In this document: positions 59,814 to 60,105 of the stretch, piece after piece
How positions within the stretch are numbered: the stretch's first letter is position 1
Layout: each line of letters opens with the position of its first letter
NCBI RefSeq assembly: GCF_017348835.2
Contig: NZ_CP071375.1
Direction: 5' to 3' (one strand)
DNA: 64,000 bases
From: Escherichia coli
GTDB taxonomy: Bacteria; Pseudomonadota; Gammaproteobacteria; Enterobacterales; Enterobacteriaceae
Translations under genes and position numbers: made by a program
Notes under the pieces: model-generated
What the model saw: the letters and a program-made list of their open reading frames with translations, nothing else
Databases searched by the model: none
What the model was told of the DNA's origin: nothing

Positions 59814-60105
59814 TTGGGAGAAAGGGGGGTGATCGAGGTATATCTTTTTCTCCTTTCGCTATACATCCTAAGGAGTATTTCGGCGTAAAATTTTGATTTA
59901 TTTCACATAGAGTTAGTGGTTTTTTATTTATTTAATGGTTTTAAGTTTTTTAATTAATGTAATTACGAAATGACCCGCAGGTTTAAGTGATTTAATTGAT
60001 TTAATGAATAAAATTTGCCACGATCATAATTAATATCTATGTATTTTGATTCAACATTTTAATTACATCCGTCAAAGAGGCTCGGGACAACCCGCAAGGA
60101 AAACA
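59814..60105. promoter_or_regulatory. AT-rich citC / citA divergent control region with repeated TTTAAT / GATTTAATTGATTTAATGAAT motifs
   Basis: Direct repeats and very low GC read directly; expected location of CitB (DpiA) and global regulator sites. Confidence 0.6.

Follow-up and report, generated by a model that had tools for sequence, protein, structure and literature searches.

Conserved hexamer arrays and predicted regulator sites in the divergent citC-dpiB control region of Escherichia coli

The stretch of Escherichia coli DNA analyzed here (64,000 nucleotides, called the window below) contains, at positions 59727-60105, the intergenic spacer between citC and dpiB. This spacer is the known divergent citC / dpiBA control region, in which two arrays of short hexamers would probably serve DpiA, together with a CRP-like site, a NarL-type element and, possibly, an ArcA-type box. 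The locus itself is an already known and catalogued control region, and nothing found in it is different in kind. What is added is a corrected boundary, a base-level map of the conserved portions, a model of the operator as hexamers repeated every 9 bp, the geometry linking the CRP-like site to the citC -10 element, and a predicted ArcA-type box.

The sequence corresponds to the E. coli citC-dpiB (citA) control region, with 100% identity to strain PE164 and about 99% to K-12. Of 5426 complete E. coli genomes, 5419 have the region, annotated as citC / dpiB. The genes dpiB and dpiA are also named citA and citB, and citC heads the citC(DEFXGT) citrate-fermentation operon. citC, encoding citrate lyase ligase (352 aa; Pfam Citrate_ly_lig, E 2e-85), occupies 58668-59726 on the minus strand, starting from the ATG at 59726-59724 and preceded by a Shine-Dalgarno AGGA at 59741-59738. 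On the plus strand lie dpiB (60106-61764 in RefSeq), a sensor kinase with Pfam Cache/PAS histidine kinase domains and a Shine-Dalgarno AAGGAA at 60096-60101, and dpiA (61733-62413), a response regulator with a Pfam HTH_64 'DpiA-like' domain; dcuC is at 62454-63839 (RefSeq coordinates). According to the RefSeq annotation of PE164 and K-12, the spacer is 379 bp long, with a GC content of 31.4%.

A first-pass annotation, made from the sequence, had described a spacer of 290 bp, whose left edge is 87 bp short: it was placed at 59814 because the longest citC reading frame was taken (GTG at 59813, 381 aa). The same long form was given in the old EHEC annotation that Fellner et al. (PMC4683798) employed. 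It was rejected on several grounds: in about 70 species CitC homology begins at residue 1 of the 352-aa form; sister Escherichia species have no alternative upstream start codon, and other genera feature in-frame stops, at varying distances; the representative of the E. coli protein cluster, which has 4394 members, is 352 aa long. The extension is not real; the spacer therefore runs from 59727 to 60105 (379 bp), and citC starts at the ATG at 59726. The 87 bp previously left out contain more conserved elements.

The description of the spacer as AT-rich was accurate: GC content is 31.5% at 59814-60105, versus about 50% in the flanking genes (50.7% in citC, 50.0% in dpiB) and a window mean of 52.3%, and falls to 22.8% in the core, 59900-60070. 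Equally AT-rich 292-bp windows are only 0.5% of those within the 64 kb. Several further low-GC islands are present in the same window.

One genome per species was scanned for the divergent citC / dpiB arrangement, which is kept in about 70 species, belonging to Escherichia, Citrobacter, Salmonella (arizonae, diarizonae), Intestinirhabdus, Hafnia, Buttiauxella, Atlantibacter, Pluralibacter, Edwardsiella, Yersinia, Providencia, Moellerella, Leminorella and Pragia. Across Enterobacterales the spacer measures 325-440 bp, with a GC content 15-20 points under that of its flanks: the extreme AT-richness is conserved, from Escherichia to Providencia.

When 18 species, from six genera, were aligned, 78 of the 379 columns proved invariant; they form discrete blocks, and the variable segments between these do not change in length. 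Starting from the citC side, the blocks are block a (59795-59813, 8 of 19 columns invariant), a block containing the -10 and NarL-like elements (59862-59877, 6 of 16), the CRP-like block (59889-59907, 12 of 19), the core of array A (59931-59954, 15 of 24), array B (59982-60005, 14 of 24), block f (60010-60026, 4 of 17) and block g (60051-60068, 9 of 18). No invariant column is found in the variable part of the citC leader (59814-59861), in the segment 60027-60049, in the dpiB leader (60069-60105) or in the GC-richer linker between the two arrays (59964-59981, 0 of 18), which is also free of indels. Arrays A and B are the most conserved portion of the spacer among the 18 species, and substitutions among E. 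coli genomes likewise spare them.

The two arrays account for the repetition that the first-pass annotation had reported. The strings quoted there were found at 59922 (TTTTATTTATTTAATGG), 59950 (TTAATTAATGTAATT) and 59989 (GATTTAATTGATTTAATGAAT), and the claim of a repeat-laden region proved correct: 6-, 7- and 8-mers are repeated two to four times as frequently as in dinucleotide shuffles (P<=0.001), an excess which holds in block shuffles preserving the local composition gradient (P<=0.0025), and the repeated words resolve into the two conserved arrays. The longest exact repeat, direct or inverted, is 9 nt, not above chance in the shuffles; the repetition therefore consists of many short words, not of long repeats. 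The word TTTAA occurs seven times in the core, and all short distances between copies are 9 or 18 bp, a result obtained in none of 2000 shuffles: the 9-bp phasing of the hexamer arrays is beyond chance.

Array A, on the plus strand at 59922-59963, is made of five hexamers with a 9-bp period (TTTTAT-tta-TTTAAT-ggt-TTTAAG-ttt-TTTAAT-taa-TGTAAT). Array B, at 59982-60005 and in the same orientation, reads TTTAAG-tga-TTTAAT-tga-TTTAAT, with a weak fourth unit extending to 60014, and covers the tandem GATTTAAT noticed in the first pass. A 24-bp position weight matrix (PWM), with consensus TTTAATTGGTTTAATTGATTTAAT, was built from arrays A and B of all species. In the window, array B scores 26.5, the best value, and array A 18.3, 22.6 and 20.7 at 59922, 59931 and 59940, respectively; outside the arrays no score above 9.5 is found on either strand of the 64 kb. 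All high matches are on one strand: the arrays are directional. They are still recognizable in distant genera, with scores of 15-24, and their positions are largely fixed: in every genus checked, 39 bp separate array A from the CRP-like site, and array B is 90 bp from that site wherever measured. The offset between the starts of the two arrays, 51 bp or about five helical turns, is found in Enterobacteriaceae, Hafnia and Edwardsiella; in Yersinia it is about 37 bp.

Arrays A and B are read here as proposed DpiA operators. CitB is listed as a factor characterized by genomic SELEX, with 11 sites, and citrate induces a PcitC-gfp fusion under anaerobic conditions; dpiBA does not figure in the published Reg-Seq paper. 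The region is a DpiA/CitB target in EcoCyc/RegulonDB (Yamamoto et al. 2008, 2009). EcoCyc catalogues DpiA-binding sites in the citC-dpiB spacer (PMC12405535). PMC12405535 also describes a Citrobacter rodentium PcitC sensor that lacks its own dpiAB and is still citrate-responsive via the DpiAB of the E. coli host; truncation of the 'DpiA operator sites' of the C. rodentium spacer abolishes the response, as construct DTR304, with the complete spacer, retains switching and DTR305 loses it (PMC12405535). The DTR305_Fwd primer, from the supplement of that paper, maps to the homologue of window positions 59917-59890. The whole stretch between array A and dpiB, array A included, is therefore absent from the inactive construct, which still has the CRP-like site and the sequence on through citC; the CRP-like region is retained, and the citrate response is lost nonetheless. 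These data, which concern the orthologous C. rodentium spacer and are applied here by homology, support two points: DpiA operators are located between the CRP site and dpiB, and the citrate response requires them. The truncation is not specific to the arrays, because blocks f and g are deleted too.

The PWM was also run on about 88 kb of E. coli sequence from outside the cit region. The best match, 14.4, is a similar three-hexamer array in the mdh-argR spacer (GTTTAT-gca-TTTAAT-tgc-CGTAAT), and mdh is reportedly a DpiA target (EcoCyc; Yamamoto 2008). The exuT region, presumably another target of DpiA, gives a weak match (5.5). At appY a match of 12.1 is found, but about 840 bp upstream of the gene, and oriC has no match to the array PWM. 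The dcuB promoter, served by the paralogous DcuS/DcuR system, resembles the spacer in two ways: its response regulator belongs to the CitB family, and its upstream region is long and rich in AT. It differs in lacking an array of three TTTAAK units. Its control region scores 2.4 at best, and from this absence of the motif the operator type appears to be specific to DpiA.

These comparisons bear on a different reading of the arrays, as a generic AT-rich scaffold of curved DNA for H-NS, Fis or IHF, with the real DpiA site elsewhere, for example in block f or g. A core with 22.8% GC is indeed a typical H-NS substrate, a 9-bp period is unusual among direct repeats bound by response regulators, and the joint deletion of blocks f and g with the arrays in DTR305 fits a site in those blocks as well. 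Yet no other part of the spacer is as invariant as the directional arrays, while degenerate sites for nucleoid proteins would not fix 14-15 of 24 columns from Escherichia to Edwardsiella; moreover, the similar array tops the mdh region, and none is found in the equally AT-rich dcuB region. We consider the scaffold improbable, and retain the arrays as putative DpiA operators.

On the citC side of array A, the CRP-like site TTTGATTTATTTCACA (59892-59907, centre 59899.5) has the citC-sense sequence TGTGA-AATAAA-TCAAA, which agrees with the CRP consensus TGTGA-N6-TCACA at 9 of 10 positions, with one mismatch. By itself, such a match is no rarer than expected by chance in 64 kb. All 22 species compared, from Escherichia to Pragia, share the TGTGA half-site without change; in the same 22 species a TAnnnT hexamer is found exactly 21 bp past the 16-bp CRP-like core, with T1, A2 and T6 invariant and the others variable (TAGGAT, TACGAT, TAATCT, TACTAT, TATTAT, TAGCAT, TATGAT, TATCAT). 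An invariant TAnnnT at a fixed distance is the signature of a putative -10 element; in the window, the predicted citC -10 is TAGGAT, at 59865-59870 on the minus strand. The geometry of the two elements predicts a transcription start at 59858 (+/-2 nt), on the same strand. Given the fixed 21-bp distance, the CRP-like site is therefore predicted to be centred at -41.5, in a class II arrangement, while the centre of array A falls at about -84.5.

The predicted citC promoter has no recognizable -35, and a scan for promoter and terminator consensus sequences gave nothing useful in the spacer, as would be expected of promoters that depend on an activator. An IHF site at TATCAG was rejected, the TTR element being missing.

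A similar position of CRP, centred at -41.5, is reported for both citC and citS of Klebsiella pneumoniae (Meyer, Dimroth & Bott 1997, 2001). The citC-citS spacer of that species, which has CitB and CRP sites (PMC2735749), is, like citC-dpiB, an A+T-rich divergent spacer of citrate-fermentation genes. The two loci differ in their right-hand operon, citS-oadGAB-citAB in Klebsiella, while here dpiBA is directly divergent, and in the number of CRP sites, which in Klebsiella are present at both promoters, while one conserved CRP-like site was found in the E. coli spacer. In the CitC homologue search, the best 120 matches are all orthologues closer than that of K. pneumoniae.

The same sequence, TGTGA-N6-TCAAA, might alternatively be an FNR site, or a dual CRP/FNR site, conferring anaerobic induction on citC from -41.5. 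In E. coli the downstream half, ATCAA in the citC sense, is a perfect FNR half-site, and the whole matches TTGAT-N4-ATCAA at 8 of 10 positions; FNR also acts at -41.5, and cit expression is anaerobic (PMC12405535). Against this, the CRP match is 9 of 10, the downstream half drifts to GTCAA or TCAAT in other species, and the literature names cAMP-CRP, not FNR, for the sensor (PMC12405535) and CRP for K. pneumoniae (PMC2735749). FNR has little chance of being the regulator here, because the half-site that is invariant, in 22 of 22 species, is the CRP-specific TGTGA; CRP is the preferred candidate.

A NarL/NarP-type 7-2-7 element, TACATCC-TA-AGGAGTA, is found at 59862-59877. On the citC-sense strand, a perfect NarL heptamer, TACTCCT (59877-59871), adjoins the predicted -10; the other half, matching at 5 of 7 positions, overlaps it. 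The pattern alone would be expected about twice per window by chance, and it is kept in Escherichia, Citrobacter, Salmonella and Hafnia, and not in Yersinia. For the NarL-like as for the CRP-like match, the weight assigned to the prediction comes only from conservation and geometry. The inputs reported for the sensor in its E. coli host are DpiAB, NarL and cAMP-CRP, and inhibition by nitrate is also reported (PMC12405535); a NarL-type element over the -10 would fit both this inhibition and the NarL input. The suggestion, in the first-pass annotation, of a hub for CitB (DpiA) and global regulators is thus in line with the catalogued DpiA sites, the effect of the truncation and the presence of CRP-like and NarL-type elements. 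NarL, which had not been named there, is better supported than ArcA or H-NS; of an H-NS-bound silencer, the sequence shows the AT-richness alone.

On the dpiB side, a candidate promoter may be traced on the plus strand, at 59996-60024: a -35 TTGATT (59996-60001), lying inside array B, a 17-bp spacer with TG at 60016-60017, and a -10 CACGAT (60019-60024). The TTGATT inside array B is invariant. The -10, AACGAT in other genera, is a poor match to consensus (3 of 6). It belongs to block f (AATcTGyAACGATC), which is found at a fixed offset past array B in 16 species. By inference, block f is readable as an extended -10, TGn followed by (A/C)ACGAT, with a predicted dpiB start at about 60031; it could instead be a binding site for a factor.

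Block g contains an ArcA-type direct-repeat box, ATGTAATTAAAATGTTGA, at 60051-60068 on the minus strand (TGTAA-N6-TGTTG, 11-bp period). It was scored with an ArcA PWM derived from 115 ChIP-derived boxes (Park 2013, Table S3, PMC3798270), using a threshold of at least 15 bits. With 19.1 bits, it passes the threshold and is the best match in the 64-kb window, above the published ybdJ box located in the same window (17.4 bits, at 15624); in composition-matched shuffles, P is 0.004. At the orthologous position in other genera scores range from 11 to 19 bits, as the half-sites are kept and the 6-bp spacer varies. The boxes of Park 2013 have a median of 16.0 bits (PMC3798270) and, as in block g, feature two TGTTA-like repeats 11 bp apart; most repressive ArcA sites are located at a promoter or leader, and so is block g. 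Other candidates were discarded: a RstA box at block g, since the RstA period is 10 bp versus the 11 of block g; a PhoP box, whose first half-site has three mismatches; and an ArcA box at the TTAATTAATGTAATT run quoted in the first pass, which reaches only 11.7 bits and whose second half is not conserved.

For ArcA, which the first pass had listed for footprinting, there is a high-scoring predicted box at 60051-60068, and no published ChIP peak is found there: the supplementary tables of Park 2013, based on ChIP in one growth condition, anaerobic glucose, list no ArcA region at citC, dpiB, citA, dpiA or 6510xx-6515xx. ArcA is therefore a candidate, not a finding. Any role of it would be in tuning or anti-silencing, because the cit genes are induced, not repressed, anaerobically.

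Taken in sequence, the proposed sites suggest a probable scheme for the operation of the region. DpiB would sense citrate in the absence of oxygen and generate phospho-DpiA, which would bind the same-oriented TTTAAK arrays A and B, with their 9-bp phasing. Array A, at about -84.5, and cAMP-CRP, at -41.5, would jointly fire the weak citC promoter, starting at about 59858; nitrate-activated NarL or NarP, bound to the 7-2-7 element over the -10, would block it. Array B, overlapping the -35 of the candidate extended -10 promoter of dpiB (start at about 60031), would provide autoregulation, and the ArcA-type box at 60051-60068, in the dpiB promoter or leader, may add redox control.

A broader version of this scheme may be put forward as a tentative possibility, rather doubtful at present. 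According to it, Arc signalling, through the box at 60051-60068 and a weaker one at 59796-59813, would contribute to the oxygen response now credited solely to the sensor kinase, perhaps by countering H-NS; in addition, the directional 9-bp TTTAAK operator would work with array A, located midway between starts about 173 bp apart, serving both promoters.

The weaker of the two boxes coincides with block a, TGATAACnTTTTnTTTTCA (59795-59813), which corresponds to about +45 to +63 of the predicted citC leader. Its ArcA score, 10.3 bits in E. coli and 10.6-14.8 in Citrobacter, Intestinirhabdus, Hafnia and Buttiauxella, is not significant alone in shuffles. A sigma-54 promoter in block a was rejected, because conservation does not extend to the GG of the -24 element. 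The predicted citC leader is about 131 nt long; predicted lengths are 132-137 nt in Escherichia, Citrobacter, Salmonella, Hafnia and two of the four Buttiauxella loci, and 87-129 nt in the others.

The citC-proximal part of the spacer also hosts the end of nog1 (59491-59796, plus strand), an antisense overlapping gene described with a predicted terminator, and for which a recent origin is claimed (Fellner 2015, PMC4683798). With citC starting at 59726, the final 70 nt of nog1 fall in the spacer, not inside citC. At its 3' end, on the plus strand, a terminator-like structure is formed by a 16-nt inverted repeat (59755-59770 / 59785-59800) and a T-run (59802-59810): the hairpin, with a folding energy of -15.6 to -17.4 kcal/mol and a z score of about -3 (-2.9 for the fold of -17.4 kcal/mol), is followed by CUUUUAUUUU. 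Its AU-rich stem and long loop explain why the consensus scan did not call it. Escherichia alone has a strong hairpin here (z from -3.5 to -3.9), which matches the recent origin claimed for nog1. A second, putative structure lies close to the 5' end of the predicted citC leader (59817-59853, minus strand): a closing stem, in which GGAGAAA (59853-59847) would pair with UUUCUCC (59823-59817). In single-sequence folds a leader stem is found in the same place, with a sequence differing by genus, a weak indication that is suggestive only. With RNAalifold, no consensus structure emerged from 16 predicted citC leaders, because indels broke the automatic alignment.

The hairpins at 59755-59800 and near the predicted 5' end of the leader might be seen as pointing to a structured RNA, a riboswitch or sRNA, encoded by the spacer and explaining the repeats. 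This is very improbable: the strong hairpin is specific to Escherichia and RNAalifold gave no consensus; a scan of 59400-60400 against Rfam returned only a eukaryotic scaRNA at E 0.07 (17 bits, versus a gathering threshold of 65), hence no family match; and the repeat core, 59905-60010, lying between the predicted divergent starts, would not be transcribed. Finally, that AT-richness and repeats are a compositional by-product, of mutation bias or of an acquired island silenced by H-NS, with no site-specific organization, is scarcely credible, despite the low GC and the other low-GC islands of the window: the phylogenetic footprint, as read from the alignment, already contradicts it, with its fixed-distance geometry, its 78 columns invariant in 18 species of six genera and its variable segments of retained length, and word repetition exceeds that of composition-matched shuffles.

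The divergent control region described by these predicted sites refines the picture of a textbook two-component control region, and opens no new biological question. It is the region that decides citrate fermentation in the gut by E. coli and its relatives, and it already serves as a biosensor part for citrate, anaerobiosis and nitrate (PMC12405535). A map of its blocks at base resolution, taking in the operator hexamers, the predicted class II CRP site, the NarL-type site over the -10 and the possible ArcA box, would aid both the design of such sensors and the annotation of orthologous regions.

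The spacer between citC and dpiB (window 59727-60105) carries two proposed DpiA operators, arrays A (59922-59963) and B (59982-60005), composed of TTTAAK-type hexamers at a 9-bp period. When compared with K-12 MG1655, it differs at five positions: three substitutions (at 59745, 59887 and 59975), a 1-bp deletion in K-12 within the G-run at 59824-59829, and a G-to-A change in K-12 at 59938, which falls between hexamers of array A. The array hexamers are identical in the two sequences. In E. coli BL21(DE3) (NZ_CP081489.1), the spacer is interrupted at about window position 60023, just past array B and block f (60010-60026): the dpiB side is fused to a secE / tufB remnant, a junction found in this one assembly only. 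There, dpiB has lost both arrays and no longer has the citC operon beside it; the break is a strain-specific rearrangement.

The citC-proximal part of the spacer also contains the end of nog1 (59491-59796, plus strand), an ORF of 101 aa with a GTG start, which Fellner et al. 2015 (PMC4683798) presented as an antisense "overlapping orphan gene". It was there described as "completely embedded" in citC, under the old, long citC annotation. With the current RefSeq start of citC (59726), the stop codon and the final 70 nt of nog1 lie inside the intergenic spacer, so nog1 extends beyond citC.

A hairpin followed by a T-run (59755-59810, plus strand) is located at the 3' end of nog1. The hairpin is strong in Escherichia species only (z from -3.5 to -3.9), where base changes are present and pairing is kept; the T-run block itself is conserved across all genera. 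On the minus strand, single-sequence folds suggest a closing stem (59817-59853) close to where the predicted citC leader begins, at the same place and with differing sequences between species; for example, E. coli has GGAGAAA/UUUCUCC, C. amalonaticus CCGGGGAAAA/UUUUCCCCGG and Salmonella GUCAGAG/CUCUGAC. This leader stem was not captured by RNAalifold.

Outside the cit locus, in about 88 kb of E. coli sequence, the top match of the matrix built from arrays A and B of all species is a three-hexamer array, GTTTAT-gca-TTTAAT-tgc-CGTAAT, in the K-12 mdh-argR spacer (L083:3390-3413), about 120 bp upstream of mdh, for which an ArcA box has also been published. Within the window, besides the candidate box at 60051-60068 upstream of dpiB, the matrix derived from 115 published ArcA boxes (Park 2013, PMC3798270) matches the published ybdJ box (15624-15641, plus strand; 17.4 bits) and, on the minus strand, two sites of 13.5 bits each (63623-63640 and 63977-63994), located either side of the start region of dcuC, for which a dcuC/crcA ArcA site was predicted in Park 2013. 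A second near-consensus CRP match in the window, AGTGATTTGCGTCACA, with one mismatch, is found at 51959-51974 (plus strand).

Three further islands with GC below 36% are present in the window (26031-26422, 44341-45029 and 45181-45800). One of them may correspond to ybdO (citR) / ybdNM, a region regulated by H-NS; its deletion increases citC about 4-fold (PMC9068703).
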